From an uncultured Silvanigrella sp. (GTDB taxonomy: Bacteria > Bdellovibrionota_B > Oligoflexia > Silvanigrellales > Silvanigrellaceae), in assembly GCA_903933385.1 (NCBI GenBank), contig CAIZJW010000129.1, positions 22,207-86,206 of the forward strand: a stretch of DNA of 64,000 nucleotides, given 5' to 3'. Below, piece by piece: positions 3,122 through 32,750 of this stretch (within the stretch, counting starts at the first letter, position 1; every line of letters begins with the position of its first letter). Made by a program: the position numbers and the translations under genes. A model generated the notes under the pieces. That model saw only the letters and a program-made list of their open reading frames with translations. It did not search any database and was not told the DNA's origin.

Positions 3122-4222
3122 TCAACCGACCTTTGCAACAGTTCTTCGTGCGATTTCCGCCATGATAAGTGCGGGTATCCTGCCAAGAGGACTGACTATT
3201 TGAACCGCTCCAAGATCGATGGCCTCGCGAGGCATCCCGAAAACAACGCTTGTTTCCTCATCTTGAGCAATATTGTAACTCCCTGTCTGTCGCATTTTTA
3301 GCAGCCCATCTGCTCCGTCACGTCCCATGCCGGTCAAAATAACTCCAATTGCTCCAGGGCCGACGATGCGCGCAACAGACTCGAAGAGAGGATCAGCCGC
3401 AGGCCGTACGCCATGCAGAGCAGGCTCCTGATTGGTCCGAACCAGATAGCGTCCCGCAACCTTGCTCAAATACATATGAAAATTACCAGGGGCCAAAAGC
3501 GCAACACCCGCACTGAGTGGTTCACCGTCGACAGCCTCTCTGACAGGAAAGGCACACACCTGAGTCAAACTCTCTGCAAAATTCTTTGTGAAGAATGCAG
3601 GCATGTGCTGGACTATCAATGTTGGCGGTATATTTGCGGGCAATTGTGTGAGTAGGCTCCTCAGCGCCTCGGGTCCTCCGGTTGAGGCTGCGATGCAAAG
3701 AACAGTTCCATGCCCCCCCCCACTCGCTGGCCGAAACACATTTTCTTGTCCGGGACGAACATTTGCACTGACAACTTTAGATTGATTTCGGCTGACTATT
3801 TTTGCGGATGCGGCGGCACGAATTCGGTTCGACAACTCATCTGAGAGCAATCCCAAACCTCGGCTTACATCCAGATTTGACTTTGAGATGACGTCAACAG
3901 CGCCCATGGAGAGTGCTTTTTGGCTCAATTGCGAACCTTTTGGCGTAAGGCTGCTAATGATAATAGTTCGCGTTGGGAAATGCTGCATCACCTTTTCTAG
4001 AAAATTAAGTCCATCCATGCGGGGCATTTCGACATCAAGTGTCATGACATCGGGGTTGTGTCGCACCAAAAGCTCACGCGCTGCAAAAGCGTCTGAGGCA
4101 CTCCCAACAACTTCAATCAAGGGATCATGGGCGAGCAACTTTGTGATGAGAGTGCGAATCACAGGAGAGTCGTCTACTACAAGGACTTTAATTTTTTGAT
4201 GACTGCCAACCGTGCTTGTCAT
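3122..4222 (-). CDS. cheB: Chemotaxis response regulator protein-glutamate methylesterase CheB (REC + active esterase domain)
   Basis: REC domain (KVLVVDDSPVIR.., DVMTLDVEMPRMDG). The methylesterase catalytic triad motifs are intact: AASTGGPEAL (Ser), VQHMP (His), GMGRDG (Asp). The ATG overlaps the upstream stop (ATGA at 4219-4222). Confidence 0.9.
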   Translation of the reverse strand: MTSTVGSHQKIKVLVVDDSPVIRTLITKLLAHDPLIEVVGSASDAFAARELLVRHNPDVMTLDVEMPRMDGLNFLEKVMQHFPTRTIIISSLTPKGSQLSQKALSMGAVDVISKSNLDVSRGLGLLSDELSNRIRAAASAKIVSRNQSKVVSANVRPGQENVFRPASGGGHGTVLCIAASTGGPEALRSLLTQLPANIPPTLIVQHMPAFFTKNFAESLTQVCAFPVREAVDGEPLSAGVALLAPGNFHMYLSKVAGRYLVRTNQEPALHGVRPAADPLFESVARIVGPGAIGVILTGMGRDGADGLLKMRQTGSYNIAQDEETSVVFGMPREAIDLGAVQIVSPLGRIPALIMAEIARRTVAKVG

Positions 4223-5781
4223 ACTGCCGCCTTGCTTCTGAAGCGCATGAGAACAGTTGCCAACTCATCCGGATGGAGAACCTGATCTGCTGCACCAGCC
4301 GCAATTGCTGCCTGTGGGGCAAAGGCAAATACGCTCGATTCCGGATGTGCCACAATGGTCTGACATCCCTTTTCACGAAGCTGCAACAACCCCTGAACAC
4401 CATCGCTGCCAAGCCCACTCAATAAAATGCTCACTACCCCCTTAAGTTTGCCAGACGGAATAGCTTTAATTGCCGACTGAAAGAGGGCCTCTGCTGAAGG
4501 AATCTGCAAACAAATTGGAGCTCCCTCTTGCAATCTCATGACCGATTTTCCGGCTATATTTTCTAGGGTGAGATGTCTTTGTGGGGGAGCAAAATAAACC
4601 GTGCCAGCCAATGGAACAAGTCCATCAACAGCTACCTTCAACTGCAGACGGGTCAGCTTTTTCCACTTCTCAAGGTAAACATTCAGCAGCGATGAAATTG
4701 AACTCACAGAAACAATTACAGGTGGAGTGTCACTGGGAAGTGACTGAAGAAAGGCTTCAAGCTCATGGTGTGCACCACCATTGCCGCCAACCAAAACCAA
4801 ATTAATTCCCTCGGCGAACTCTCCAGAAGTTTGAATCGTTTTGCGCACCTCAACACGCGGTCGTCGAGGCGCCATTTTGACTCGCTCCAAAGAACTAGCT
4901 GCTGCGAGAACTTTCTGCACCAAACCTTCAGCAAAAAAACGCAATGAATTAGGATCGAATTGATCTGGCTTCTGGACAAACTCGAGAGCACCTAACTCAA
5001 GAGCTCGCAAAGCTGCATCGTCTTCTGGGTTTAAAGAAGAAACCATAATTGTCGGCAGGGGGAAATGTTGCATCAACTTTTCAAGAAATTTCACCCCCGA
5101 CATGCCAGGCATTTCAATATCCAGAAGCACTACGTCGGGTTTCTTCTCAACTATGACTTCCCGAGCTTCAAAAGCATCGCGTGCTACAGCAACAACCTCA
5201 ACCCGACCAGATTGATTGAGCACTCTGCTGAAAATGGAGCGCACAGCAGCGGAATCGTCGACAACCACAACTCGTGCAATGCGGCTAATAAGACTCACAT
5301 GACCGCCTGAGGTATCGATACGATTGCTGTTGTTCATCAGCTGATGCTTGACCGAAAAGTCGAAAGTGTTAAGGACGATTTTGCGCCCCACAGTTCCACC
5401 AAGGTCGTTCGCCAGAATTGGGATTTTTCTTTCTTTGAGCCAGTTCAATGCAAAATCGATGTTATGCTTGCCAATACTTTCACCGAGTCCGACGTTGTCG
5501 AGAACACGCGCCCCGCCATAAACTTTTGCTTGAATTCGTTCAAAACAAGCACCAACCTCAAGCATGTTTTCAAGCATTTGGGGAAGTGACACACTTGCAT
5601 AACGTAAGCTTCCAGCCATACTGCTGTCGCCTGGCCGTGGCAGCAGATAGTGATTCAAGGCGGCAATTCTTTTTGTTGGCTCGTACAGAGCCACTGCGAC
5701 ACAGGAACCCAATATTGTTGTCACAAGGGTGGGTTCGCGTGTCACGATAAATTGCCCTGGAAACAGATATTGGTTGTTCAT
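4219..5781 (-). CDS. Fusion protein: CheD chemoreceptor glutamine deamidase + REC receiver + degenerate CheB-like methylesterase domain
   Basis: aa 1-150 carry CheD motifs (TILGSCVAVALYEP, LNHYLLP). aa 168-290 form a REC domain (VVVVDDSAAVR, VVLLDIEMPGMSG, IMVSSL, FVQKP). aa 325-510 have a CheB-like fold, but GASTGG is replaced by GGNGGA, QHMP by VSVSS, and only GLGSDG is retained. Confidence 0.8.
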   Translation of the reverse strand: MNNQYLFPGQFIVTREPTLVTTILGSCVAVALYEPTKRIAALNHYLLPRPGDSSMAGSLRYASVSLPQMLENMLEVGACFERIQAKVYGGARVLDNVGLGESIGKHNIDFALNWLKERKIPILANDLGGTVGRKIVLNTFDFSVKHQLMNNSNRIDTSGGHVSLISRIARVVVVDDSAAVRSIFSRVLNQSGRVEVVAVARDAFEAREVIVEKKPDVVLLDIEMPGMSGVKFLEKLMQHFPLPTIMVSSLNPEDDAALRALELGALEFVQKPDQFDPNSLRFFAEGLVQKVLAAASSLERVKMAPRRPRVEVRKTIQTSGEFAEGINLVLVGGNGGAHHELEAFLQSLPSDTPPVIVSVSSISSLLNVYLEKWKKLTRLQLKVAVDGLVPLAGTVYFAPPQRHLTLENIAGKSVMRLQEGAPICLQIPSAEALFQSAIKAIPSGKLKGVVSILLSGLGSDGVQGLLQLREKGCQTIVAHPESSVFAFAPQAAIAAGAADQVLHPDELATVLMRFRSKAAV

Positions 5782-6252
5782 TCAAGCCACGCGCTTAATG
5801 TCCATCATCAAGATGGATTCTTGTTCAACAACACAGAGATGAGTGACAAGCAATTGTGCATCATTGAGTGCATGCAAATCGTTCGTCGGAAAATCCTGAA
5901 CATAAAGCATTTTTTCGACCCACAAACCGAATCGACGCCTTCCATCAAAAACAACGATAATACAACCTTGTCCCGACTCTGCTTCGCCCGCACTTCCTTT
6001 GCCGAGCAAACTCGCCAAATGATAGATTGTAAAAACAACCCCACGCAGATTGACGACTCCAAGGATATTTGGGCGATTCACAGGAAGAGGATTCCAGCGC
6101 CGAGATTCAAGAACCTCGACAACTTGACTCATTTGAATGCCAAACTTCTGTTCCCCAACCTGAACAAGCAAATAGCTCGAACGGGGACCTTTAATTCTCC
6201 GTTCCTCGAGTGCTTCCTGGAGGCCATTGATGATGTCTTCATTAAGCTGCAT
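5782..6252 (-). CDS. cheW: Chemotaxis coupling protein CheW
   Basis: CheW-domain signature ..KFGIQMSQVVEVLE...PLPVNRPNILGVVNLRGVVFTIYHLASLLG. I chose the start at ATG 6252, which is preceded by GGTGGGGG. The track's TTG at 6288 has no RBS. The stop abuts the next gene's ATG. Confidence 0.85.
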   Translation of the reverse strand: MQLNEDIINGLQEALEERRIKGPRSSYLLVQVGEQKFGIQMSQVVEVLESRRWNPLPVNRPNILGVVNLRGVVFTIYHLASLLGKGSAGEAESGQGCIIVVFDGRRRFGLWVEKMLYVQDFPTNDLHALNDAQLLVTHLCVVEQESILMMDIKRVA

Positions 6253-8428
6253 AAGCCGCCCCCACCAATGATTCTGCATCGAGAACAAATGCTACATGTT
6301 CAGAATCGAGTAAACTTGTCCCCTTGAAACCAAGGAGCCTTTCGACAACATTATCGAATGGACGAACGACTGCCTCAAGTTGATCGACAACTTTGTCAAC
6401 CACAAGTGCGAGTGAATGCCCTTTGTGAGTCACAATCAGCACAAGAGATTCCGGCGAGAAATCTATCTTTTCTTTGGTGCTACCCCTCAGGGGGATTTCG
6501 ATGAATGAACGGTAATCTCCGAGGGGAATTGTCATTCCATCGTGCTGGCAAGTCATCCGTCCGTCTACCTTGGACAAAATTAAGTCCTTGATAGGAGTGA
6601 TTTTTGAAATGCTCACAAGTGGCACAACGATCTGGTGTCCTCCACTCTCAGCGAGAAGGGTATTTTCAACGAGAACCGTCTTGGGCACGGGAATAACAAT
6701 CTTCAATCGGGTGCCCATTCCCAAAGTGGACTCGATGACACAGGTGCCTCCCAATTTGGAGACCTCTGTTCTTACAACATCCATGCCAACTCCACGCCCA
6801 GAAACATTCGTGACTTTTTCGGCCGTAGAAAAGCCGGGCAGGAAAATGAGCTCAATAGCCTCTTGGGCCGGCATCGCAAAAGCCATATCTTTTGTGATGA
6901 GACCCTTCTCAAGAGCTTTTCTCTTAATAAGATCTGGATCCATTCCAGAACCGTCGTCATCGATTGTGATGTGAACCTGTTCTCCTACCTGGCTCGAATG
7001 AATACGAATTACACCACTTTCAGGTTTATTTTTGGCAATTCTGATTTCTGGTGATTCGATCCCATGATCGACAGAGTTGCGAACAGCGTGCACAAGAGAA
7101 CTCGAAAGTGCCTTGGCAATGCTCTTGTCGACACCAAGTTCAGAGCCAGTCATTTCGAGGCGAACCTGCTTATGAAGATCCTGTGACGCCTGTCGAACAA
7201 TTCTTGGAAATTTCTGAAAGGCGACTTTAAGTTGAACCTTTCGAATCTCCATAATCTGACCCTGAATTTGCTCCGATATTTTATCAAGCGACTGGTTCAT
7301 CTCTTCAAGCCTTTGTTTCTGCTCGGAGGGTAAATCACATTTCAACACTTGCTTGATAGTTGCATGGTATGCATTTTTTAAAACAACCAATTCACCAGAC
7401 AATTCCATGAAAGAATTGAGTTTATCGATTGTAACAAGCAAGCCGTCCTCTTCGTCTTCAGAAGAAGCAGGATCACTTTTCAGTGGCTGTACCAAATTGC
7501 CAAGCTGCATTTCCGGTGAAGTGATTTTTGCATCAGCGATGGATGTAGGGTCGTTGACCCAAATAATACCATCGTCGTTTTTTTCGTCTTGAGGTTTGAT
7601 TGCTGCTGAACTCTGCGTCTCTGGAGTTGCCGGAAAATCGACCTGCCCCTCCGTCCATCGATTGAGAGCCTCAACGAATGGCTGAAGATTAACCGCCCTA
7701 TCTCGACTCGCTTCAAAATCAGAAACAAGACTCTTAATGACATCTGCGCCCTGTAAAAGCACATGGGTCAGCGCCTGGGAGGGTTTGAGGCGACCTTTTT
7801 TAATTGCCTGAAGAAGATTCTCATATGCGTGTGTCACCGTTGAAATCTTTTCCGCCCCCTGAAAAGCTCCTGCTGAACCTTTGAGCGTGTGAGCCTTTCT
7901 AAAGAGAACATCAACCACTTCGGGCTGGAGTGGAACTTCTTCTAATTTGAAAATAAACGAATCAAGGTCACGCAAAATGTCTGCGGCCTCATCGCAAAAT
8001 ATCTTGCGAACCACCAACATTTCTTCATTTTCTCTGCTAACTTCTGCTTTTCTCTCAGAAACAAAAATTTCTGCTTTTTCTCGAAGTCGAACGAGGTCCT
8101 GAGGCTTTTCGAGCAAATCGTCAATTCCTACCCGAAACCCATCGAGAACAGTTTGCTTGTCAGCGTACCCGGTCAAAACGACGAACTTAATTCTTGGTGA
8201 TTCCTGTTTCAGACGTCGACAAAATTCAATGCCATTCATTCCTGGCATACGATAATCACTAATCACTGCAAAACATGCATTTTCCCGAGAAAAAGCCAGT
8301 GCATCCTCTGCATTTCCGAGCGAATGAATAACGCAGTCCAATCCTTGCAGGCTCTCCACAATTGCTTCGCGCAAATCGGAATCGTCTTCGACAACGAGCA
8401 AAATTTCTTCGAGCTTCATGGTCGTCAT
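6242..8428 (-). CDS. cheA: Hybrid chemotaxis histidine kinase CheA with an N-terminal REC domain (REC-Hpt-dimerisation-HATPase-CheW-like)
   Basis: REC (LLVVEDDSD, VISDYRMPGMNG, VVLTGY, LLEKP). Hpt (AHTLKGSAGAF). Kinase N, G1 and G2 boxes (HAVRNSVDHGIE, DDGSGMD, GRGVGMDVV). C-terminal CheW-like domain. The ATG overlaps the cheR stop (ATGA). Confidence 0.9.
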   Translation of the reverse strand: MTTMKLEEILLVVEDDSDLREAIVESLQGLDCVIHSLGNAEDALAFSRENACFAVISDYRMPGMNGIEFCRRLKQESPRIKFVVLTGYADKQTVLDGFRVGIDDLLEKPQDLVRLREKAEIFVSERKAEVSRENEEMLVVRKIFCDEAADILRDLDSFIFKLEEVPLQPEVVDVLFRKAHTLKGSAGAFQGAEKISTVTHAYENLLQAIKKGRLKPSQALTHVLLQGADVIKSLVSDFEASRDRAVNLQPFVEALNRWTEGQVDFPATPETQSSAAIKPQDEKNDDGIIWVNDPTSIADAKITSPEMQLGNLVQPLKSDPASSEDEEDGLLVTIDKLNSFMELSGELVVLKNAYHATIKQVLKCDLPSEQKQRLEEMNQSLDKISEQIQGQIMEIRKVQLKVAFQKFPRIVRQASQDLHKQVRLEMTGSELGVDKSIAKALSSSLVHAVRNSVDHGIESPEIRIAKNKPESGVIRIHSSQVGEQVHITIDDDGSGMDPDLIKRKALEKGLITKDMAFAMPAQEAIELIFLPGFSTAEKVTNVSGRGVGMDVVRTEVSKLGGTCVIESTLGMGTRLKIVIPVPKTVLVENTLLAESGGHQIVVPLVSISKITPIKDLILSKVDGRMTCQHDGMTIPLGDYRSFIEIPLRGSTKEKIDFSPESLVLIVTHKGHSLALVVDKVVDQLEAVVRPFDNVVERLLGFKGTSLLDSEHVAFVLDAESLVGAAYAA

Positions 8429-9384
8429 GCCGCTTCCCCTTTCCGATTTGTATTCAAGCGTTCATAAACAGCTGGTGCTCTCGACTTTAGCCCCGGAGTC
8501 ACGCCAATAATTGTTTCACTGTGTCCAAGAAACAAAAGTCCGCCCAACCTAAGGCAGCCTTCAAGCTTGCGGATCGTGGATTGGATTTCTGGGCGATCGA
8601 AATAGATCATCACATTTCTGCAAAATATGACGTCAAACTTAGACTGAAAAGCATAGGACGTGGACATGAGATTGAATGGTGCGAAGGTGATAAGATCTCT
8701 CAATGATTTCCTGACTCTCACCAGGCCATCAGAATCGCCCACTCCTCTGTCGAAACAACTATTCTTAAGATTATCTGGCACAGATTCAATTGCTTCCTGC
8801 GGGTAAACCCCGCGCGCGGCTTTTTTTAGAACATCGGTGTCGATATCTGTCGCTAGTATTTTAAGATGCCATCCCTCATTCGCAGGAAAAATCGCACTCA
8901 AACTCATTGTGATTGAGTATGCTTCCTCACCAGTGCTGCAAGCTGCGCACCAAACTCTAATCTCGCGACTCTTCTTTTTATCTGGATGATTGACAACGTC
9001 GCGGATCGATTTTGCAAGAAAGTCGAAATGTTGTTTTTCGCGGAAAAAGTGAGTTGTGTTTGTCGTTATTGCATTTATAAAAAGATCTCGGACATCACGC
9101 CTGCCAGCAAGTAGAGCCGAGTGAAGTTCTGAATATGTAGAAAACCCAAGGGGATTCATAATCTTGCCGATTCGGCTGGCGAGAAGGGTCTGATTTTTTG
9201 CAGACAACGTCAGGTTAATGCCAGCTTCTCTCCGAAGGTATTCAGAGAGTTTTCTAAAGCCGGCAAGATCGCCTTCAAGTTGTTTAGGGCTTACATCACC
9301 CGAGTTCAAAGACACGCGAATCTCCTTTTCTCGCTCACGCGAGATGTATCGGCTGTTTACCGAAAAGAAGAGCGTCAGATTCAT
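8425..9384 (-). CDS. cheR: Chemotaxis protein methyltransferase CheR
   Basis: Motifs TNTTHFFRE, IRVWCAACSTGEEAYSI (SAM-binding) and FDVIFCRNVMIYFD. The longest ORF starts at GTG 9462. I prefer ATG 9384 (MNLTLF..), which leaves room for a divergent promoter. The start is uncertain. Confidence 0.85.
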   Translation of the reverse strand: MNLTLFFSVNSRYISREREKEIRVSLNSGDVSPKQLEGDLAGFRKLSEYLRREAGINLTLSAKNQTLLASRIGKIMNPLGFSTYSELHSALLAGRRDVRDLFINAITTNTTHFFREKQHFDFLAKSIRDVVNHPDKKKSREIRVWCAACSTGEEAYSITMSLSAIFPANEGWHLKILATDIDTDVLKKAARGVYPQEAIESVPDNLKNSCFDRGVGDSDGLVRVRKSLRDLITFAPFNLMSTSYAFQSKFDVIFCRNVMIYFDRPEIQSTIRKLEGCLRLGGLLFLGHSETIIGVTPGLKSRAPAVYERLNTNRKGEAA

Positions 9385-9407
9385 GACAGAGCGTCGGAAA
9401 CAAAACG

Positions 9408-9433
9408 GAAATTTTTCGCAAATCATCCGATAC
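9408..9433 (+). promoter_or_regulatory. Candidate sigma-28 (FliA)-type promoter for the divergent cheW
   Basis: GAAA-N15-CCGATAC on the + strand, 30 nt upstream of GTG 9463. This is a partial match to the TAAA-N15-GCCGATAA consensus. Weak, pattern-only call. Confidence 0.25.
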
Positions 9434-9462
9434 CCACTGTGACTCTGGAAGGGGGAATTCAC

Positions 9463-9948
9463 GTGGAACGTCCGATACGTAGAACTGCCGAGGAAGGTCG
9501 CTATCTGAGCTTTCAGTTAGCCAGTGAAACCTATGCAGTCCCCATTAAGTCTGTTTCGGAAATCATTGGGCTCAGTGATATCACCCACGTGCCAAACATG
9601 CCCGAATACATGAAGGGAATAATAAATCTGCGCGGTCGGGTGCTCCCAGTCATGGATCTGCGCAAGAAGTTTTCACTTCAAATTACAGAGTACAATCGTG
9701 AAACGTGCATCATAATTGTGGAGATTTGGTCTCGCAAAGTTGGATTGATTGTCGATACAGTTCGTGAGGTTCTCGATTTTCGCAACAACCAAATTGAAGC
9801 AGCACCTGACATAGGCGGTCAGACACACAATCAATGTTTGATTGGAATTGGTAAGCTCACGGATCGCGTTGTTATATTGGTTGAACCCAGTTTGATTCTT
9901 GGGCCGGAAGAACTCGCGGGGCACGCTGGCCTTGCATCCGTAGCGTAA
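9463..9948 (+). CDS. cheW: Chemotaxis coupling protein CheW (second copy, divergent from cheR)
   Basis: CheW domain: RYLSFQLASETYAVPIKSVSEIIGLSDITHVPNMPEYMKGIINLRGRVLPVMDLRKKF. Start set to in-frame GTG 9463, preceded by GGAAGGGGG at 9447-9455. The track's 9280 start would overlap cheR on the opposite strand. Confidence 0.8.
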   Translation: MERPIRRTAEEGRYLSFQLASETYAVPIKSVSEIIGLSDITHVPNMPEYMKGIINLRGRVLPVMDLRKKFSLQITEYNRETCIIIVEIWSRKVGLIVDTVREVLDFRNNQIEAAPDIGGQTHNQCLIGIGKLTDRVVILVEPSLILGPEELAGHAGLASVA

Positions 9949-10647: not shown

Positions 10648-10859
10648 CGTTTCTTTCGCCCTTTCTCCATTGTTTTCGGAGTTTTGCTTGGACATATTAA
10701 CCAGCGCCGTTCGAAATGATGGCTGCACTCGGCAATATTTAGCGACGTATTATCCACCTTAAACAAGGAAAACGCGCCGGAAATATGCCACCTGAGCGGT
10801 TAATGCATCAACTAGTTGGGCAGTTTTTCCGATGTAATTTCAGAAGGGTATCGGAGTCG

Positions 10860-13800
10860 ATGGTGATGGTTCAATCACGCCTTAAAATCGTTTGCGCACT
10901 TATGTTCGTCCTGCTTCTTGGGGCGTGCTTTCGTGCTGCGCCTCCGCTCGAAGATGATGAACCTGAATTTGCCACCGAGACCATAAGTTCAGATCCCGGA
11001 GCGCCGACACCGACACCCGTTGATGCGCCGAATGCTCCAAATAATTCGCCACTCATCATGCAGCTTTCTAACCTTACAATTGATGAACTCACTTCGTTTC
11101 CAGCAATGAGTTTTCGTATCTTTGATTTTGATGACGAAGTTATGTGTAAGAGCGTTGTTCCAGTGAGCGACAATTTATCGGCAATCATGACAACAAGCAC
11201 GGCGACACAAAATCAAACCTCCATGACTTATGGTGACATCACAATCACAGGTGGCGATACAACACGCTGCGGAATAGCGATCACGACGCGCTACGCCACC
11301 TTGAATCCAGTGAAAATAACGCTATTTCTGAGCGACCAAACGGGAACAAGTAAGTCTTATTTCAGCGTTCAGGTCACATCTACAAACGGCGCACCGAAGA
11401 TTGCCGCAGCCGGACAAGATTCAATTGGCGTCAATGAAGATCAAAGCCCCGGACAAAATATCCTGCTGCCGCAGTTCACAGATGACACTCCGCGCGGCTC
11501 TCCGGCTCAAATGAGTTTTCAGATCGTAAATCATCCATTGAAAGGCACCCTTGGAAACTGGCCTTCTGATCCGGGTGCCGGTGGAGTAAGTGTAAGTTAT
11601 CTGCCAGTTGCGAACGAAAATGGACAAGACACCTTCAGCTATAAAGTTTGTGACAACGACCCAGGAATTGTCAGATGTTCAGACGTGCAGACAATCGCTG
11701 TTTCCATATCTGCACAGAATGATGCTCCGTCGCTTGATCCAATATCCACCCAGAATACGACAGAAGCCGCGCCCGTTCTAGTGAACTTTATTGCGAGGGA
11801 TGTGGATGGTCCACTGCAATGCAACTCTACATATTTGAGCTATTCTTCGAGCGATCCCGTGTTGGTTCCAAATTCCGGAGCCGTGAGCTTTGGCGGGAGC
11901 TGGCCCAATTGCACGGCCACAATATCTCCAGCACTCAACAAAAGTGGTTTTTCGAATTTAACATTAACTCTTTCGGACGGAAGCTTAAGTGGCTCGCAAT
12001 CGTTTCAATTGAATGTCTCAGGAGTCAATCATGCCCCAACAATGGGCGCCATCAGTGCACAAAGCGTCACTGAAGACACACCATTTCAGGTGAACTTTAC
12101 AGTTGATGATCAGGATGGAACCTATATCTGCAATTCAACTTATTTGTCTTATTCTTCTGGAACGACGTCAAAGATTGCTTCTTCTGGGGCTGTTGCGTGG
12201 AGTGGAACTTGGCCCAATTGCACTGCGACGGTGTCTCCCCTGGCAAATCAAACCGGAAGTGTAAACTTAACTTTCACAGTGACAGACGTGGGCGGACTTT
12301 CTGCGTCTCGAACATTCGCAACAACCTTGAATAACGTTAACGACATCCCGTCGGGAGCGCTTACATGTGAAGGAAGTTCATCTGCCAACGTCATTCGCGC
12401 AGGCAAATCTGGTTCATGGAACATTTCGTGTAATGGTGTGACGGACGTCGATGGCGATACGTTGAGCTACATCATGGATTTCGACTCTTCATCGCATTTA
12501 TCAGGGGTTACGTGCGCTTCAAATCTTACAGCAAGCTCGGGAACATTCAGTGGAAGCTATGCAACTTCTCCCAACTACGGAACATGCAGGTATAAGATTA
12601 AGGCTTGCGATCCCAGCGGGGCGTGTACTCCAATGACGAGTTACTATGCTGAAATTACGCATTTCCAGCTCGCAATTTCTCCAGTCACTAAGCCCACACT
12701 GAGTGACAGTTGTGTGCTTTCAAGCAGTGCAACATTCTCTTTTTCGGGAAATATAAGCAATTTAAATTACAGCGCTCTAACAAATATGTCAGGCACCACA
12801 GCGCAAACCGGCGCAACCGTGACTTCACCTTTTATCTTTTCCAACATAGCTTCTCCGTCGTATCTAATTGCGACTCCTCCAGTCAAAGACTCAAGTCAAA
12901 CGTCTGCTTCTGCATCCTTTCAATTCACAGGTGGTTCTTTTCTTGCAGGAATCAGTGGCAATTCGAATATTTCAACAACTGCAACGCAATCATCGAGCTA
13001 TCTAGTGAATCGAGTTCTTGAACAAATTAAGCTCAGAACTCTCAGTGATTACTCGAATACTATTTCTGAAAACAGCGTGAACCTCGATGGCTACCAGCCC
13101 GGTTATGAAACGACCTCAAACGTTTGCCGCCAATGCACAACTGGAAATTTGGCATCACTTTCGGCCGCCAAAAATCATTCGTGTTTGATCGACGTCTCTA
13201 CCTTAAAATGCTGGGGCAACAACGCAAATTCGAAACTCGGAAACGGTAATACCACTCAGTACACATTTCCTCAGTCAATTACGATTTCTTCTTTCACACC
13301 TCTTCAGGTTGCTGCAGGCTCCGATTTCACCTGCGCCTTGGGAACAGTCTCTTCAAACAAGGAAATTCGCTGCGCTGGCAATAATTCGGTTGGACAATTG
13401 GGCCGTTCAACTGGTGCCACCAACACATATTCAACTACTATCAATTTCTCTGGTCGAACACCTGTGGCAGTGAGTGTATCAAAATTTGGGCAGTTCGGAT
13501 GCGCGATTTTGAACGACTCTGGAGCAGGGACTGCGGGACACGTTCATTGTTGGGGTGGCAATACGTCTGGGCAGCTCGGAAACGGATCAACAACAACTCC
13601 CGCGCCCACAGGGAGTGTTGCGACTGTTTCTTCGGGTGCATTTGTCGGCGGCAACAAAAATATTTTCGCACTTGGCGTTGGATATGAGCATGCGTGTGCC
13701 ATTCAGAATCAAAGCTCGAGTGTCAATGCGGTGTATTGCTGGGGCAATGGGAGCGAAGGAAAGTTAGGGAACAATTCATCTGGCAATAGCACAACTCCGG

Positions 13801-14420
13801 TGGCAGTCGAGAGTTCTCAATTGAGCACAAATGTTTTGCAAGTTGTGGCGGGATATTCCCACACGTGCGCTTTGCGTTCCGGTGGAGATGTTTACTGCTG
13901 GGGAGATAACTCATTGGGTCAGCTTGGCATTGGCTCAACGACCTCAAGCCAAGCCCCCGCTCAAGTGACCGGACTCCCATCACCCGCCGTTCAATTGACT
14001 GCAGGTTCTAATCACACCTGTGCGCTCTTGAACGACTATAGCGTGCATTGCTGGGGTTGGGGAACCTCGGGCCAACTTGGTGTGGGGAGTGTCACAGCAA
14101 CTGATGGATCAGCCGACGATTGCAACCCAGCCAGTGGTGCAGTGAATGTTATTTTCTGCAAAAAATCGCCAACAGGCATCACATTTCCTTCCACCGCGAC
14201 TGTGGTTTCCATTTCGGCCGGAGAGTTTCACACGTGTGCAATGAGCATTGAAGGCACAAGCTATTGCTGGGGCGACAACTCCTCTGGTCAACTTGGAACC
14301 TCCAGCAATCAACAAGTTTCAACACCCGCCTATATTTGTAGTAACTCAAGCAGATGCGCGAACACTCCAACTCTCACCACACCACGCCCCAAGATGTGCA
14401 GCAAATACGTTATCCCCTAA
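10860..14420 (+). CDS. Large surface lipoprotein: cadherin-like/Ig-like tandem modules followed by a 7-repeat RCC1 beta-propeller
   Basis: Signal peptide plus lipobox (..CALMFVLLLGAC) after ATG 10860/10866 (GGAG at 10853). Modules are bounded by NGAP/NDAP/NHAP/NDIP motifs. Seven RCC1-type repeats: CWGNNANSKLGNG, CAGNNSVGQLGRS, CWGGNTSGQLGNG, CWGNGSEGKLGNN, CWGDNSLGQLGIG, CWGWGTSGQLGVG, CWGDNSSGQLGTS (about 13170-14340). Confidence 0.8.
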   Translation: MVMVQSRLKIVCALMFVLLLGACFRAAPPLEDDEPEFATETISSDPGAPTPTPVDAPNAPNNSPLIMQLSNLTIDELTSFPAMSFRIFDFDDEVMCKSVVPVSDNLSAIMTTSTATQNQTSMTYGDITITGGDTTRCGIAITTRYATLNPVKITLFLSDQTGTSKSYFSVQVTSTNGAPKIAAAGQDSIGVNEDQSPGQNILLPQFTDDTPRGSPAQMSFQIVNHPLKGTLGNWPSDPGAGGVSVSYLPVANENGQDTFSYKVCDNDPGIVRCSDVQTIAVSISAQNDAPSLDPISTQNTTEAAPVLVNFIARDVDGPLQCNSTYLSYSSSDPVLVPNSGAVSFGGSWPNCTATISPALNKSGFSNLTLTLSDGSLSGSQSFQLNVSGVNHAPTMGAISAQSVTEDTPFQVNFTVDDQDGTYICNSTYLSYSSGTTSKIASSGAVAWSGTWPNCTATVSPLANQTGSVNLTFTVTDVGGLSASRTFATTLNNVNDIPSGALTCEGSSSANVIRAGKSGSWNISCNGVTDVDGDTLSYIMDFDSSSHLSGVTCASNLTASSGTFSGSYATSPNYGTCRYKIKACDPSGACTPMTSYYAEITHFQLAISPVTKPTLSDSCVLSSSATFSFSGNISNLNYSALTNMSGTTAQTGATVTSPFIFSNIASPSYLIATPPVKDSSQTSASASFQFTGGSFLAGISGNSNISTTATQSSSYLVNRVLEQIKLRTLSDYSNTISENSVNLDGYQPGYETTSNVCRQCTTGNLASLSAAKNHSCLIDVSTLKCWGNNANSKLGNGNTTQYTFPQSITISSFTPLQVAAGSDFTCALGTVSSNKEIRCAGNNSVGQLGRSTGATNTYSTTINFSGRTPVAVSVSKFGQFGCAILNDSGAGTAGHVHCWGGNTSGQLGNGSTTTPAPTGSVATVSSGAFVGGNKNIFALGVGYEHACAIQNQSSSVNAVYCWGNGSEGKLGNNSSGNSTTPVAVESSQLSTNVLQVVAGYSHTCALRSGGDVYCWGDNSLGQLGIGSTTSSQAPAQVTGLPSPAVQLTAGSNHTCALLNDYSVHCWGWGTSGQLGVGSVTATDGSADDCNPASGAVNVIFCKKSPTGITFPSTATVVSISAGEFHTCAMSIEGTSYCWGDNSSGQLGTSSNQQVSTPAYICSNSSRCANTPTLTTPRPKMCSKYVIP
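11718..12338 (+). repeat. Two tandem in-frame modules of about 310 bp (103-104 aa) inside the large lipoprotein gene
   Basis: Module 1 (11718-12026): NDAPSLDPISTQNTTEAAPVLVNFIARDVDGPLQCNSTYLSYSSSDP..SWPNCTATISP... Module 2 (12027-12338): NHAPTMGAISAQSVTEDTPFQVNFTVDDQDGTYICNSTYLSYSSGTT..TWPNCTATVSP... The similarity is clear at both protein and DNA level. Confidence 0.85.
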
Positions 14421-14496
14421 TTTTCGCAATCCGCTCGACTTTGCCCAGCGTATAAAAAAAGCTAAAGTGATTGCTCAGAATTGGAGACTTTCACTC

Positions 14497-15591
14497 ATGC
14501 TGCACAAGTTCGAATGGCGCAAACCCGACGGCCGCTCGTGGATTCAATACAGCCGCACGCCCTTCCCAGAGAACTTCACCCCAATAGCACCCGGACTCGT
14601 GCGCCCAGAGACATGGACCCCGCCACATTTGCGCTGGAATGCAATGCGCGGGGAATATGTGAGCATCTCTGCAAGCCGCCAAGACAGACCCTTTTTGCCA
14701 CCGCGCGAGTACTGTCCATTGTGTCCTTCAACACCTCTCCCCGATGGCTCTCGCCTTGATACAGAGGTTCCGCAAAGTAACGCTTTGTATGAGTGGGCTG
14801 TATTTGAAAATATGTTTCCTGGTCTTTCGCCAGCCGGCGAGCCCCCTACAGGCAAGTGTGAAGTTATTCTGTATTCACCTCGCCACGACTCAACTCTGGC
14901 AAGAGAGCCACTCTCACAAATTGAAGGGCTGGTTCAGGTTTGGCAAGACCGTTGTAAACACATAGCTCTTGATCCAAATATTGAATTTATCTTTCCGTTC
15001 GAAAACAAGGGCACGGAAATTGGTGTCACTCTGCATCACCCGCACGGGCAAATTTATGCGTTCAACCATCTTCCGCCGTTTATAAAAGCGGAACACACCA
15101 TGGCAGCGGAACATTTTCAAAAGACGGCCGAATGTCTCATTTGTTCCATGACTCGAGAAGAACTCACAGAAAAAAAACGGATTGTCTTTGAAGGCAAAGA
15201 GATTGTCGCATTCATTCCTTTTGCCGCGCGCTATCCTTACGAGATTCATATCACAACACGCACCCACAGGCCTCTTATTCAGCAACTGACGGCTTCTGAA
15301 AGTTGCGAACTGGCTGTTGCCCTCAAAACTATTCTCATGAAGTACGATGCTCTGTTCGGATTTCCGATGCCCTATATCCTGGCGCACCATCAAGCTGCCG
15401 CCCATGATGTCGATTGCCCCCACTACCACTGGCACATCGAAATCTATCCCCCTTACAGAACCGCACAGAAACTGAAATATTTGGCTGGAGTTGAGAGCGG
15501 AACGGGGTTCTTTATCAACGACACTTTTCCAGAAGAGAAGGCTGCCGAATTGAGAAAAATTGAAGTCGACATAGGCTCATTTACCCACTGA
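14497..15591 (+). CDS. galT: Galactose-1-phosphate uridylyltransferase
   Basis: Active-site HPHGQIYAF and the zinc motif YCPLCPS. Start moved to ATG 14497 (GGAG at 14483). The track's 14248 start overlaps the preceding gene. Confidence 0.9.
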   Translation: MLHKFEWRKPDGRSWIQYSRTPFPENFTPIAPGLVRPETWTPPHLRWNAMRGEYVSISASRQDRPFLPPREYCPLCPSTPLPDGSRLDTEVPQSNALYEWAVFENMFPGLSPAGEPPTGKCEVILYSPRHDSTLAREPLSQIEGLVQVWQDRCKHIALDPNIEFIFPFENKGTEIGVTLHHPHGQIYAFNHLPPFIKAEHTMAAEHFQKTAECLICSMTREELTEKKRIVFEGKEIVAFIPFAARYPYEIHITTRTHRPLIQQLTASESCELAVALKTILMKYDALFGFPMPYILAHHQAAAHDVDCPHYHWHIEIYPPYRTAQKLKYLAGVESGTGFFINDTFPEEKAAELRKIEVDIGSFTH

Positions 15592-15621
15592 ATCAGAACC
15601 CAAGACAAAGGATTGTCTCAG

Positions 15622-17010
15622 ATGCAAATCTCAAGCGGCGTTCATCCATTACCAAGCGATCCTGGCTCAACTTTGCAAAAACTAGTGAGTTTCACACCGG
15701 GCCGGGTCAACCTTATTGGTGAGCATACCGACTACAACGGCGGGATGGTCATGCCTGCGGCATTAGATCTTGGTCTGCGCTGCGAAATGAAGGTTCTTAA
15801 TTCATCTGAGGGCATGATTTTTTGTGCCTCGCGCACCTCGAACGAAACTCTTGAAATCTCGGCGGCAGAAACTTCAGAGCTTGCCAATATCGCCTTGAAA
15901 TCAGGATTGGAGAAAAGCGAAACGATCCCCCTTCAAGGTGTCAGCAAAGGGCACTGGACACGATACGTTATTGGCTGCTTTGCTCTTTACGAAGCGGCTC
16001 TTCTTGGCAGGCAGATTTCAAAAATGCCATGGTCTGAAAAAACTCTCAGCCTAATCCTGGAATCAACCCTCCCACAGGGCGCAGGCCTGAGCAGCTCGGC
16101 AGCGCTTTGTATTTCACTCCTAGGTCAACTCAATTTTTTAAGTGGCGCCCCCCTTGATGCTGGGACACTGGCACGTTTGGCAATGCTTGTAGAACATCGC
16201 TTTGCTGGCACTCACTGTGGACTCATGGATCAGCTTGCAGTTTTATGCTCTCGTGCTGATCACTACACCCGAATCGATTTTTTGGAGTTTCCGGTTTCCA
16301 AGAGCTTCCATATTTCATACGCAAAGGCGCATGAAGCGTTTCACAATCACGCGCTTGTTATTTTCAAAACTGGAGTCAGCCACTCACTTGCAGAAAGCGC
16401 TTACAACGAACGTCGGGCATCATGCGAAGCTGCTCTGCAGGAAATGAACAAAGCACTCGGCCTCGGCGCCCACTCTCTAGGCGAACTTGCGCGATTGCCT
16501 CGTTTTAAAGGAATTCCCTCAAACAGCGAATATTTGAACCTGGTTGAATCTCTGCTTTCAGGTCATCGCGAGCACAAAATTCTTGCGCGCCGCGCAACTC
16601 ATGCAATGCTCGAAAATGCTCGCGTTGTTGATGCCGCAAAGGCGCTTTCGGCTGGCGATCTTAATTCTCTCAATCGAGTGATGCGCGAGAGTCATTACTC
16701 ACTCGACAGCCTTTATGAGGTGAGTTGCCCCGAACTCAATTTAGCTTGTCAGAGCATGGAGAGTGTTGTTCGCGACCTTTGCTTATCTCATTCCACATTA
16801 GGCGACACAGCGCTCATTGGCCCGCGCATGACTGGAGGAGGCTTTGGTGGCAGCACAGTGCAGCTCGTGCATCGAAATCTTTGCGATGGGCTGCTTGAAC
16901 GATTCTCGGACACGGCGAATCCCTACACCAAATCGACCGGCATACTGCCAGAAATCTTCATCACTCGCCCATGCTCTGGCTTCGCAGCGGGTCTTGAAAA
17001 CATCGAGTGA
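15622..17010 (+). CDS. galK: Galactokinase (longer than the E. coli enzyme)
   Basis: GHMP kinase/galactokinase signatures GRVNLIGEHTDYNGG, PQGAGLSSSAA and TGGGFGGS. Start at ATG 15622, preceded by AAAGGA. Confidence 0.9.
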   Translation: MQISSGVHPLPSDPGSTLQKLVSFTPGRVNLIGEHTDYNGGMVMPAALDLGLRCEMKVLNSSEGMIFCASRTSNETLEISAAETSELANIALKSGLEKSETIPLQGVSKGHWTRYVIGCFALYEAALLGRQISKMPWSEKTLSLILESTLPQGAGLSSSAALCISLLGQLNFLSGAPLDAGTLARLAMLVEHRFAGTHCGLMDQLAVLCSRADHYTRIDFLEFPVSKSFHISYAKAHEAFHNHALVIFKTGVSHSLAESAYNERRASCEAALQEMNKALGLGAHSLGELARLPRFKGIPSNSEYLNLVESLLSGHREHKILARRATHAMLENARVVDAAKALSAGDLNSLNRVMRESHYSLDSLYEVSCPELNLACQSMESVVRDLCLSHSTLGDTALIGPRMTGGGFGGSTVQLVHRNLCDGLLERFSDTANPYTKSTGILPEIFITRPCSGFAAGLENIE

Positions 17011-17027
17011 CAACGAAAGGTATAAAA

Positions 17028-19193
17028 ATGATCAGCACAAAACAAAATTTGTATAAACTCGGCGCTGCCTACTATCCCGACTACATCTCGAGCGAGAAAA
17101 CACTCACCAGACGAGTTGAAACTGGAAAAATTGAATTTCTCAGCAACAAAGAAAGACTCGTTGAAGATTTCAAAAGAATGGTTAAGCAGGGAATTCATAC
17201 AATTCGAATGGGTGAATTCAGTTGGGCCAGCGTTGAGCCAACCCCCGGGCAATGGAAGCCCGAAGTATTCTCGGATGCTCTCGACCTTGCGCACAAACAC
17301 AATATTGAAGTCATTTTCTGCACACCCACGGCCACTCCTCCAAAATGGCTGATTGATGCGCACCCTGACATTTTACCCATCACTCGCACCGGACAAACAA
17401 TCCCATTCGGTTCGCGGCGCCACTATGACTTCCATCACCCCGAGTTCCAGAAAGAAAGCCGTCGCATCACCGAGCTCTTTGCAAAAACATTTGGTTCACA
17501 TCCTGCCTTAAAGGCGTGGCAAACTGATAACGAATTTGGCTGTCACAATTCGGTTTTTTTATTCACGAAAAACGCGAAGATTGCTTTTAGAAAGTGGTTG
17601 GAAAGAAAATTTAAAGGCGAAATCGAAGCTCTGAATGAAAATTGGTTCACATGCTTCTGGTCACAACACTATCGCAGCTTCGAAGAAATTGAATTGCCAA
17701 TGGCATCCTGGGCCGATCAGAACCCGCACCTTGAACTCGACTTCCGCCGTTTCAGTAATGAAGCGCTTTGCGAGTTCCAGAGAGAACAAATAAATATAAT
17801 CCGCAAACACAGCCCCGAGCGACCTATCACTCATAATCTAATGACACTCTTCACTGATCTTTGCCCGTGGATGGCGGCAAAAGACCTCGACACTGTTGGG
17901 TTCGATCATTATCAGATGGAGTCGGATCCTCATCCCATGACTTCCGCATGGCAATTCGCTCTCATGCGATCCGCTCTTCAAAAGCATTTTATTATCTTGG
18001 AACAACAACCTCTGCAGGTGAACTGGCAAGCCACCAACAGACGTTTTTCATTCGATTGGCTTCTACTTTGGGGTATGCAATCTGCATTTCAAGGTGCAGC
18101 TGGAATGCTGTATTTCAGCTGGCAGCGCATGCCAGGTGGATGTGAGCAATACCATGATGGCGTTGTTCCCCATGACGTGCGCATTGAACAGTCCCAACAG
18201 GAAAAGCTTATTGCTGCGAAAAACGTAATTTTTGCCAAGCTCAAAGATGAGTTTCAATTCTCCAGTGAAATCCCATTGCCAGCGCGAGACGTTTTGTGTC
18301 TACATGATTCAGAAAGCCTCTGGAGTCATGAAATAACATCTCAGAGCGTTACTTATTCAACCCGCAAGCAAATCGATCACATCACGCAGTTCTGTGCTCA
18401 AAATGCCTGGGGACTCTGGTTTACACCTGCCCTTGAGGCTGAGAAAGATCGAATTCATTCCTATAAACTCATCATCCTTCCTGGACATGCATTTGAACTC
18501 ACTGACCAAGAGCGCAATTTACTTAAAAAGTTTCGCAGTCAGGGCGGACGCGTTCTTTCGCTTCCAAGAACGGGCTATAAACTTCGAAACAACAAATTGA
18601 GCCCGCTGCCAGCAGTCTTTTATTCCGCTGACGATTTTTACCTTGACGATTATGGAGCACTTCTTGAGAGCGAAAGTGAAGTGTGTGACCTCACCGATTC
18701 ATCACTGGGAGCCTGCATCGAGGGGCACCTTTGGTCGGAGAAGATTAAAGTTCTCAATGCAAATTGGAAAACTGAAGCAACATTCTCATCCAAATCAATC
18801 TTTGCGGGTGCCCCAGCCGTCCTTAAACTCAAGGAGGACAGCACACATGGTCCCCACGTTCATTTAGCGACCTGCCCAGTACCCAAAAAGGAAACCCTGT
18901 CAGCACTGCGCAAAATCCTTGAAATGCCTGCAACAGCAAAGGCCAATTCTGCCGACCTGCAACTCCAAATTCTCAGTGACAACGAAAGGAAATTTTTGTC
19001 GGGAGTCCACTTTGGACAACACACCACGTCAATCAATCTTCAACGTCAACAGCGAGTTCTCAAATCTCTGATAATCAGACTCGATCGAAACCTCGAGGCG
19101 AACATTGAACCGCTCTTGGTTGATGAAAATAATGTTCTCGCAATTCCAGGGCGCACGGCCGTGTTCATAGAACTTGCCAATGAAGGCACATAG
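17028..19193 (+). CDS. Beta-galactosidase, glycoside hydrolase family 42 type, cytoplasmic
   Basis: GAAYYPDY..HTIRMGEFSWASVEPTPGQW, acid/base motif WQTDNEFG and nucleophile motif ILEQQP..VNW, as in GH42 enzymes. No signal peptide. Start at ATG 17028 after AAAGG. Confidence 0.8.
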   Translation: MISTKQNLYKLGAAYYPDYISSEKTLTRRVETGKIEFLSNKERLVEDFKRMVKQGIHTIRMGEFSWASVEPTPGQWKPEVFSDALDLAHKHNIEVIFCTPTATPPKWLIDAHPDILPITRTGQTIPFGSRRHYDFHHPEFQKESRRITELFAKTFGSHPALKAWQTDNEFGCHNSVFLFTKNAKIAFRKWLERKFKGEIEALNENWFTCFWSQHYRSFEEIELPMASWADQNPHLELDFRRFSNEALCEFQREQINIIRKHSPERPITHNLMTLFTDLCPWMAAKDLDTVGFDHYQMESDPHPMTSAWQFALMRSALQKHFIILEQQPLQVNWQATNRRFSFDWLLLWGMQSAFQGAAGMLYFSWQRMPGGCEQYHDGVVPHDVRIEQSQQEKLIAAKNVIFAKLKDEFQFSSEIPLPARDVLCLHDSESLWSHEITSQSVTYSTRKQIDHITQFCAQNAWGLWFTPALEAEKDRIHSYKLIILPGHAFELTDQERNLLKKFRSQGGRVLSLPRTGYKLRNNKLSPLPAVFYSADDFYLDDYGALLESESEVCDLTDSSLGACIEGHLWSEKIKVLNANWKTEATFSSKSIFAGAPAVLKLKEDSTHGPHVHLATCPVPKKETLSALRKILEMPATAKANSADLQLQILSDNERKFLSGVHFGQHTTSINLQRQQRVLKSLIIRLDRNLEANIEPLLVDENNVLAIPGRTAVFIELANEGT

Positions 19194-26845: not shown

Positions 26846-26861
26846 ATCTCAGTTCCCTTCG

Positions 26862-27974
26862 TCAGTTCTGTCCGGCGTTACCGCCACCTTGACCAGTTCC
26901 AGAATTTGCTTCGCCCACGCCCGGTTTCGCTTTGTTCGCTTCTTCTGCTTCCTGCGTCTCAAGCTTGCTCAACAGATTGCGAACTTTGCTATCAACATCG
27001 AGAAGTGAGCCAGGCATAGAATTATACTTTTCAAGAGTTGCAATCGCACTTTTGCGCTTCGAAGGAACTTCTGACATTGCCAGAGCGGCGTTCCACAATG
27101 CTCTCTTGTCGTTGGGGCGAGAACGAACAACGGCGTTCAAATATTCAAGAGCCTCGTCGGGCTTTCCCGCCTGCCGATAGGCAATCCCAAGCGCGGCCTT
27201 TACGTTGATGTTGCCGCTCGCAGAGTCTTTGAGCTTGTTTAATTGAATCAACGCACCTTCGTGATCTCCAGCCTTCAACGCGAAAAAAGAAAGAGTCAGG
27301 ATTGCTGGCTCATACGAAAGCTTTGCAGCTTCGCGAAATGTTGCCATTGCAAGAACAACCTTTTTTTGCATGTAAAACATCAGACCACGCGCATGCAGCA
27401 CAGCAGCATTGACCTTACTCTTACCTTTTCCAACCGCTTCAGCCGAGTCAAGGAGATATTGAGCCATCCCGTAATCATTTCTTAACAAGGCGGTGTATGA
27501 GCATTCCAAAAGAATCCAGGGGTCTCTCGAAGAGGCTGTAGATCCACGTTTTTCTAAGACGGATAAAAAATCGCGACTATTTCCATAAAGCCTGCGAAAG
27601 ACTAAGTAGGAAATTAAGGCGCCGCCATCATCATTTCGTTCGCGATATGCCTGCTCCATATCACGCAATACATCTTCGAGCTTAGGCTGAGGTATTTGCC
27701 CTGCGAAAGTGTCTTCGTTGGACAAAGTTGTTGTTGCATATTCAACACTCGATTGTGGCGAAGGTGAATTTTTAACAACAGGAGCGGAACTACTCTTTTC
27801 TCCAGTCGCCGCACCCTTCGACTTCGCGCTGCGCGACTTTGATGAATTCTCATCAGGCTGAGCTGATTCAGCAGATTCTTGTGAAACTGCTGATTCGGTT
27901 GATTTGCATCCCGAAAAAACTCCAGTGGCAAAGACAGAAGTTAAAATCAAAAGAGTTGAATAAAAATATCTCAT
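26862..27974 (-). CDS. TPR-repeat lipoprotein (GltE-like candidate)
   Basis: From ATG 27974 (RBS GAGGGG): MRYFYSTLLILTSVFATGVFSGC, a signal peptide plus lipobox. Ser-rich linker followed by TPR repeats (e.g. ALGIAYRQAGKPDEALEYLNAVVRSRPND). Confidence 0.7.
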   Translation of the reverse strand: MRYFYSTLLILTSVFATGVFSGCKSTESAVSQESAESAQPDENSSKSRSAKSKGAATGEKSSSAPVVKNSPSPQSSVEYATTTLSNEDTFAGQIPQPKLEDVLRDMEQAYRERNDDGGALISYLVFRRLYGNSRDFLSVLEKRGSTASSRDPWILLECSYTALLRNDYGMAQYLLDSAEAVGKGKSKVNAAVLHARGLMFYMQKKVVLAMATFREAAKLSYEPAILTLSFFALKAGDHEGALIQLNKLKDSASGNINVKAALGIAYRQAGKPDEALEYLNAVVRSRPNDKRALWNAALAMSEVPSKRKSAIATLEKYNSMPGSLLDVDSKVRNLLSKLETQEAEEANKAKPGVGEANSGTGQGGGNAGQN

Positions 27975-27976
27975 TA

Positions 27977-32739: not shown

Positions 32740-32750
32740 AGATCTCTCAT

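Follow-up and report, generated by a model that had tools for sequence, protein, structure and literature searches.

A CheD-receiver-CheB fusion of Bdellovibrionota with a CheB-like domain lacking the catalytic serine and histidine

Adaptation of chemotaxis receptors is ascribed to CheR and CheB and, in some lineages, to CheD acting together with CheC. CheD deamidates glutamines of chemoreceptors and, in some species, additionally works as a glutamate methylesterase; in CheB, phosphorylation alters the packing of the receiver against the catalytic domain (structure 1A2O and later work); and in Bacillus subtilis, CheD activates the receptors and CheC competes for CheD in a manner that depends on phosphorylated CheY (CheY-P). 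Here we describe a gene that joins CheD to the layout of CheB in a single polypeptide. It is located in a 64,000-nucleotide stretch of DNA, hereafter the window, from an uncultured Silvanigrella sp. of the family Silvanigrellaceae (assembly GCA_903933385.1, contig CAIZJW010000129.1, positions 22,207 to 86,206 of the forward strand), where a 520-codon open reading frame (ORF) encodes a CheD domain, a receiver (REC) domain and a CheB-like domain that lacks the catalytic Ser and His.

Among the described systems, this fusion is most similar to CheB (1A2O, 6YMZ, 1CHD) in layout and probably also in switching. The alignment of residues 169-514 covers the whole CheB profile, with the same order of receiver, flexible linker and CheB fold, and the Asp of the catalytic triad is kept together with the Gly and Pro-Ser motifs that define the fold; the differences are the replacement of Ser by Asn and of His by Ser, the relaxation of many other active-site residues, and the additional N-terminal CheD domain. 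With Thermotoga maritima CheD (2F9Z), which also demethylates, the fusion shares the full CheD fold and the Thr, Cys and His in the catalytic positions, but its CheD has no CheC partner and, rather than being a free protein, is continuous with the receiver and the CheB-like domain. The tie between CheD and a phosphorylated receiver recalls the CheC-CheD-CheY-P system of B. subtilis as a functional analogy only: the fusion contains no CheC homologue, and the coupling would be intramolecular. In many Proteobacteria, Bacteroidota, Nitrospirota and Acidobacteriota, cheD is followed by cheB in the same order, but these are two genes in different frames and the CheB is active, whereas here the two parts belong to one polypeptide and the CheB-like part is inactive. 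The closest counterparts in architecture are fusions from the same phylum that have the same order of the three domains and a similar length but keep the Ser, His and Asp.

Given the existence of these intact-triad fusions, the architecture itself is not new. An earlier note on this DNA, made from the sequence alone, knew of no description of the architecture; in the databases, the CheD-REC-CheB combination is neither rare nor new but is a standard gene of Bdellovibrionota, widespread in this phylum and present in Bdellovibrio bacteriovorus HD100. What stands is that no paper found by full-text search of the literature deals with fusions of CheD to CheB or with a CheB that is catalytically dead (a passing mention in the classification of Wuichet and Zhulin (2010) is possible), and the conserved catalytic inactivation of the CheB domain, as well as any function of the fusion, appears to be undescribed. 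The fusion would represent a third arrangement of the adaptation machinery, used across a phylum, in which an intact CheD is wired to a receiver and to a CheB domain that was inactivated once and then preserved. It also offers a natural test of receiver control over CheD and of non-hydrolytic roles of the CheB fold, a question that is directly testable because B. bacteriovorus HD100, a predator amenable to genetics, has an orthologue.

Domain anatomy and predicted active sites

The three-domain anatomy that the earlier note had read from the ORF is borne out by Pfam: residues 46-144 match CheD (PF03975; E 5.7e-21, 75.1 bits against a cut-off of 25), residues 171-273 match Response_reg (PF00072; E 4.5e-23, 82 bits), and residues 329-510 match CheB_methylest (PF01339; E 4.5e-32, 111.6 bits against a cut-off of 24), all above the respective gathering scores. 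The protein scores below the NCBIfam cut-offs for CheB (230.2 against 293 bits and 224.3 against 342 bits for PRK00742 and PRK12555, respectively) and below those of all CheD equivalog models, which represent stand-alone CheD (at best, 119 against 223 bits).

The CheD motifs and the receiver were described in the note as preserved and complete, respectively, and both descriptions hold; all motifs that it quotes occur where it puts them. When aligned with HMMER to 2f9z_C, the T. maritima CheD, the fusion has T22 and C27 (motif TILGSCVAV) and H44 (motif NHYLLP) in the positions of the catalytic Thr21, Cys27 and His44. The REC domain contains all five signature residues (D175, D176, D221, S248 and K271), with D221 located in the motif VVLLDIEMPG. 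For the CheB-like domain, the residue register was derived from HMMER alignments to the CheB structures 1a2o (S. typhimurium) and 6ymz (P. atrosepticum) and from a MAFFT alignment that included the CheB encoded downstream of the fusion. The HMMER and MAFFT alignments concordantly place Asn334 (GGNGGA, residues 332-337) under the catalytic Ser of GASTGG and Ser360 under the His of VQHMP, and show that the Asp of GMGxDG is retained as Asp460 (GLGSDG, residues 456-461); the corresponding triad of S. typhimurium CheB is Ser164, His190 and Asp286. The loss of Ser and His and the retention of Asp claimed in the note are thus confirmed, and the loss is also seen in comparison with 113 active CheB domains. 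One detail has to be corrected: the equivalent of the His motif is not VSVSS but SVSSI (residues 358-362, within IVSVSSISS, 356-364), with Ser360 in the His position. A displaced Ser or His that would restore the CheB triad was ruled out by three independent alignments. Judging by these residues, the CheD domain and the receiver of the fusion look competent, and the CheB fold cannot use the Ser/His/Asp mechanism.

Given that the fusion lacks the catalytic residues of CheB and scores below the curated cut-offs, its annotation as a CheB methylesterase is very probably misleading, and hundreds of database entries very probably bear the label "CheB" or "glutamate methylesterase" in error. The B. 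bacteriovorus HD100 orthologue (CAE78548.1 / Q6MQ99) is annotated as "cheB, glutamate methylesterase" and appears in UniRef as "Probable chemoreceptor glutamine deamidase CheD". A "probable CheD", Bd2829, is raised in the attack-phase proteome of B. bacteriovorus (PMC12546842); this tag could not be tied to the orthologue of the fusion.

The AlphaFold2 (AF2) model of the fusion, built from a 74-sequence alignment and interpreted through Foldseek matches of the REC and CheB-like pair and of the single domains, has a mean predicted local distance difference test score (pLDDT) of 86.9 and a predicted template modelling (TM) score, pTM, of 0.82, with predicted disorder only in residues 96-98 and 306-319. 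The REC and CheB-like pair matches full-length CheB over approximately 355 columns, with target-normalised TM scores of 0.84-0.85 for 6ymz and 0.79 for 1a2o. Given that full-length CheB was recovered in this comparison, the two domains are modelled roughly as packed, unphosphorylated CheB. Among the single domains, the CheB-like domain superimposes on the isolated CheB catalytic domain 1chd with a root mean square deviation (rmsd) of 1.9 Å and a target-normalised TM score of 0.87, the CheD domain on 2f9z_C with an rmsd of 2.1 Å over 150 aligned columns (the target chain consists of 154 residues), and the REC domain on the CheB receiver 3t8y with an rmsd of 2.0-2.4 Å.

Conservation and origin of the inactivated domain

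A homologue search over 5.8 billion proteins (E <= 1e-5) retrieved at least 692 clusters, of which the best 120 homologues all contain the CheD, REC and CheB Pfam domains and have a length of approximately 520 amino acids (aa). Homologues from Silvanigrellaceae are 63-73% identical to the window protein and those from Bdellovibrio species, Pseudobdellovibrionaceae and Oligoflexus 42-47%; the uninterrupted 520-codon frame is shared by nine related loci (L001-L009) from independent assemblies. Within this set of 120, the CheD residues T22 and C27 are present in 119 sequences (one row is gapped) and H44 in all, and the receiver residues D175, D221, S248 and K271 are invariant, with D176 found in 118. 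In the CheB-like domain, Asn334 in the Ser position and Asp460 are likewise invariant (120/120 each), and Ser360 in the His position is present in 113 homologues. An exhaustive search of 1.84 billion representatives at 50% identity, with the best matches classified by their active-site residues, produced 22 full-length representatives with Asn in the Ser position, along with a few shorter, perhaps truncated, sequences; position 360 in these 22 proteins is occupied by Ser, Thr, Ala, Gly or Pro.

Residue conservation was further compared between the dead-domain clade and the 113 active CheB domains. Many residues around the pocket whose conservation is specific to CheB are relaxed in the clade, including the Thr and Gly of GASTGG, the Gln and Pro of QHMP, the Val and Asp of PSVD, the Ala of DGA, and the Gly and Met of FGMP. 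The residues common to the clade and the active CheBs are those that define the fold (G336, P353, P428-S429, S436, G458, D460 and G461). Beyond the Ser to Asn change, there are only two conserved replacements, Met to Phe in GMGxDG and one Val to Phe, and one newly conserved residue, Asp351. The combination of relaxed pocket residues and retained fold residues argues for loss of catalysis with preservation of the fold rather than for the emergence of a new active site.

All three domains of the fusion, including the dead CheB-like domain, are under strong purifying selection: the ratio of nonsynonymous to synonymous substitution rates (dN/dS) is 0.039 for CheD, 0.043 for REC and 0.034 for the CheB-like domain, compared to 0.18 for the inter-domain linker, all in the single pair L005/L006, given that synonymous sites are saturated in the other Silvanigrellaceae pairs. 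The REC domain is the most conserved (identity of 0.81 among close and 0.60 among distant homologues), and the identity of the dead domain (0.62 and 0.40) is comparable to that of CheD (0.66 and 0.44), with much lower values for linker 1 (0.37 and 0.19) and linker 2 (0.34 and 0.23). In comparisons between the same genomes, the fusion is better conserved, with 73, 65 and 63% identity, than the neighbouring canonical CheB, with 67, 57 and 52%.

In a bootstrapped neighbor-joining (NJ) distance tree built on the REC and CheB columns, the dead-domain clade is monophyletic with 100/100 bootstrap support, which points to a single ancient origin of the Ser/His inactivation. One member of this clade, P0138 (511 aa), has lost the CheD His as well as the Asp residues and the Lys of the receiver and has Asp instead of Asn in position 334; judging from its sequence, this member appears to be a derivative devoid of any catalytic function.

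Approximately 49 further representatives with the CheD-REC-CheB order keep GASTGG, QH(I/M)P and GMGxDG. These intact-triad fusions share only 28-34% identity with the window protein, have a length of approximately 500-550 aa and, in the few cases that carry names, come from metagenome-assembled genomes (MAGs) of Bacteriovoracia, Oligoflexia and Bdellovibrionales. The two operons of the intact type that we examined have the orders cheA-cheR-fusion-cheW and cheA-cheW-MCP-cheR-fusion (MCP, methyl-accepting chemotaxis protein), so that the fusion follows cheR and is not accompanied by a separate cheB, unlike the dead-domain type, which often is. CheX was found only near one fusion of the intact type (L097). 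In the tree, unfused active CheBs are nearer to the dead-domain clade than the intact-triad fusions are, so that the latter are not its sister group, which hints at two separate fusion events; this placement is weak because only a distance tree is available at such depth. In the loci from outside Bdellovibrionota, which make up most of the 80 listed, cheD and cheB are separate adjacent genes, in Pseudoalteromonas, Limnobacter, Pseudomonas, Nitrospira, Acidobacteriota, Bacteroidota, Rhizobium and others, and this widespread adjacent pair was likely the raw material for the fusion. Proteins of approximately 485 aa from Bdellovibrio, Bacteriovorax and an unclassified proteobacterial MAG (L051:508-1986, L052:6915-8366 and L054:4400-5866) consist of an N-terminal region of approximately 150 aa without the CheD Cys and His motifs, followed by REC and an intact CheB; these may represent the mirror case, with a degenerate CheD and a live CheB, or else contain an unrelated domain.

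The conserved core of the gene neighborhood is cheA-cheW-fusion, with the fusion located directly after cheA-cheW in three orders (represented by Silvanigrellaceae, Oligoflexus and Bdellovibrio). In B. bacteriovorus (L013), the unit comprises no genes other than this trio and has no response regulator besides the fusion. In Oligoflexus (L014), the array of REC-cheA, cheW and the fusion continues with cheB-cheR in convergent orientation and with a dCache chemoreceptor accompanied by cheW; the additional N-terminal REC on CheA is thus seen in Oligoflexus as well, and is not present in the Bdellovibrio locus. The loci of the Silvanigrellaceae type keep the gene order of the window but differ in the gene located 3' of the fusion, which is a full CheB in the window, L001, L007 and L009, and a 208-aa receiver-less CheB domain, with intact AASTGG and QHMP and ATGA coupling, in L002-L004; no cheB is found 3' of the fusion in L005 and L006 (downstream of 9563). 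Given that the downstream cheB can be full, receiver-less or absent, a canonical cheB is not obligatory and the fusion is the constant element. The pairing of a receiver-less, presumably unregulated CheB with a receiver-bearing dead CheB is curious. The divergent second cheW is kept in those loci of the Silvanigrellaceae type that reach that far (L001-L006, L008 and L009, by tblastn).

Possible functions of the fusion

The reading that we favor, and to which we assign roughly even chances, is that the fusion is the dedicated response regulator of a chemosensory module linked to cheA-cheW and typical of Bdellovibrionota, phosphorylated by CheA, with CheD as the enzymatic output and the CheB-like domain as a non-catalytic partner. 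The CheA of the operon would phosphorylate the receiver at D221, and the sole enzymatic output would be the N-terminal CheD acting on receptors, with the C-terminal CheB-like domain no longer hydrolysing anything but retained, under selection, as a folded partner. Before phosphorylation, the CheB-like domain would pack on the receiver in the CheB fashion; phosphorylation would open this pair and gate CheD, either by exposing a receptor-docking surface, such that CheD is brought to the methylation helices, or by freeing CheD from steric inhibition. The methylesterase task would be left to a separate CheB, encoded next to the fusion or elsewhere in the genome. The proposal of the earlier note, in which CheA-dependent phosphorylation controls the CheD activity and the dead domain serves for docking or autoinhibition, appears plausible, given that it fits the cheA-cheW-fusion synteny, the purifying selection and the CheB-like packing in the model.

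Several observations weigh against this reading. The invariance of Asn334 is stricter than a merely dead site would be expected to need: this residue may be structural, steadying the strained nucleophile turn together with Asp460, or may mark a binding function through contact with a substrate side chain. The adjacent cheB is receiver-less or missing in some close relatives, so the division of labor between CheB and the fusion is not fixed. The dN/dS values come from one comparison, and no chemoreceptor gene was found in the operon of the fusion among the 27 window ORFs scanned. A bolder variant, which we put forward tentatively and consider unlikely, is that the CheB-like domain is a non-catalytic reader of amidated or methylated glutamyl sites, or of the CheB docking surface, that passes the sites in a phosphorylation-dependent manner to the fused CheD, which took over the chemistry. 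If so, the adaptation machinery of chemotaxis would have its first pseudoenzyme in the reader domain, and the fusion would be a hard-wired, single-protein alternative to the CheB and CheC/CheD adaptation branches.

An alternative about as doubtful as the reader variant holds that the fusion is a feedback module of a mainly non-enzymatic kind, analogous to the Bacillus CheC/CheD/CheY-P loop but contained in one polypeptide, in which CheD binds the receptors and raises CheA activity until phosphorylation of the receiver pulls it off, with the CheB-like domain as its intramolecular seat and deamidation as a secondary activity. This would agree with the covalent connection of CheD to a receiver encoded directly after cheA-cheW, with the preservation of the dead domain as a fold with relaxed pocket residues, and with the lack of any Pfam match to CheC or CheX in the fusion, the window operon and loci L013 and L014. 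However, the CheB-like domain is not a CheC homologue and its binding to CheD is only postulated, and the strict conservation of the CheD Thr, Cys and His suits an enzyme, although B. subtilis CheD retains the same residues; the present results do not separate this module from a CheD-output regulator. Somewhat less probable still is an antagonist or decoy that shields the methylation sites or the CheB docking site, with the receiver serving as a phosphate sink that competes with CheB and CheY for the phosphoryl groups of CheA, methylation being tuned negatively and CheD reduced to an accessory. The location of a dead paralogue beside a translationally coupled active CheB, the intact receiver and the purifying selection on the dead domain are compatible with such a role, and there is a precedent in the Pil-Chp system, where response regulators are reported to act antagonistically on receptor methylation (PMC12129077). 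The adjacent CheB, however, is missing in L005, L006 and the Bdellovibrio locus L013, and yet the fusion is strongly constrained; moreover, the relaxation of many substrate-pocket residues is a poor fit to a site-specific decoy, and the invariant CheD triad is left unexplained.

Continued enzymatic activity of the CheB-like domain, through Asn334, Ser360 and Asp460 or on another substrate, seems highly improbable, even if the invariance of Asn334 and Asp460 and the presence of Ser360 in most of the close homologues could be taken in its favor. The variation of position 360 among the distant representatives implies that this residue is not an essential nucleophile, most of the other CheB active-site residues are relaxed with just one newly conserved residue, and we know of no hydrolase chemistry that employs an Asn nucleophile. 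Virtually no credence is left for an artefact, that is, a frameshift or misassembly joining cheD with a cheB-like gene, or a decaying pseudogene. Separate adjacent cheD and cheB are usual in many other phyla, so that an accidental join is conceivable, but this explanation is refuted by the uninterrupted frame in nine independent assemblies, the homologous clusters that include complete Bdellovibrio genomes, and the dN/dS of approximately 0.03-0.04 in all three domains.

The operon and other genes of the window

The operon on the minus strand consists of cheR, REC-cheA, cheW, the fusion and the canonical cheB, followed by a gene for class II 3-deoxy-D-arabino-heptulosonate 7-phosphate (DAHP) synthase (Table 1). 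The CheA encoded here is presumed to be the kinase for the REC domain of the fusion. As the earlier note had stated, the downstream cheB is intact and overlaps the fusion gene, its ATG sharing the sequence ATGA at 4219-4222 with the TGA of the fusion: the protein contains AASTGG at residue 178, QHMP at 205 and GMGRDG at 298 and scores 399.1 bits against 293 for PRK00742, which it passes, and 338.8 against 342 for the second NCBIfam model. Neither cheY nor a chemoreceptor gene was detected by Pfam near the operon among the window ORFs scanned. The overlap between cheR and the divergent second cheW amounts to approximately 180 bases if the longest ORF of each is taken. The tblastn matches of cheR to relatives mostly start at residues 2-62, and given that the matches to relatives mostly start well inside both ORFs, the true starts of both genes, including that of cheR relative to the listed GTG, are probably located downstream, and the overlap is probably an effect of ORF calling.

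Table 1. Positions of the fusion gene, its domains and key codons, the other chemotaxis genes of the window, and related genes in other loci (window coordinates unless a locus is named)
Feature	Position	Strand	Basis or comment
CheD-REC-pseudoCheB fusion gene	4219..5781	minus	ORF list: 520 aa, ATG start, TGA stop at 4219-4221
CheD domain, residues 1-150	5332..5781	minus	PF03975, 2f9z_C alignment, Foldseek
CheD predicted catalytic codons	Thr22 5716-5718; Cys27 5701-5703; His44 5650-5652	minus	
Linker 1, residues 151-168	5278..5331	minus	19-37% identity to homologues; pLDDT ~60
REC domain, residues 169-290	4912..5277	minus	PF00072
REC codons	D175+D176 5254-5259; predicted phospho-acceptor D221 5119-5121; S248 5038-5040; K271 4969-4971	minus	
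Linker 2, residues 291-325, variable	4807..4911	minus	306-319 predicted disordered, pLDDT <50; dN/dS 0.18
CheB-like domain without catalytic Ser/His, residues 326-520	4222..4806	minus	PF01339, 1a2o and 6ymz alignments
CheB-like codons	Asn334 4780-4782; Ser360 4702-4704; retained Asp460 4402-4404	minus	
cheB, canonical (REC and intact Ser/His/Asp methylesterase)	3122..4222	minus	Pfam, NCBIfam, motifs
cheW	5782..6288	minus	PF01584; stop codon immediately abuts the ATG of the fusion
cheA with additional N-terminal REC (REC-Hpt-dimerisation-HATPase-CheW)	6242..8428	minus	Pfam
cheR, first gene of the operon	8425..9462	minus	PF01739 and PF03705
Second cheW, divergent	9280..9948	plus	PF01584, 127 bits
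Receiver-less CheB 3' of the fusion in relatives	L002:7827-8453; L003:9560-10186; L004:9560-10186		
Intact-triad fusions	L096:7001-8617; L097:7001-8551		Proteins P0143-P0255

Elsewhere in the window, a gene on the plus strand (10785-14420) encodes a 1211-aa protein in which long Ser/Thr-rich repeats with paired Cys precede a C-terminal third with repeated C/YxWGxNxxGQLG motifs; by eye, this part resembles an RCC1-like beta-propeller. A galactose utilisation cluster follows on the same strand (14248-19193) and includes galactose-1-phosphate uridylyltransferase, galactokinase and a GH42 beta-galactosidase (by Pfam). On the minus strand (24869-32754), a gene for an FHA-domain protein is followed by three genes for TPR-rich proteins, one of which consists of 1062 aa.

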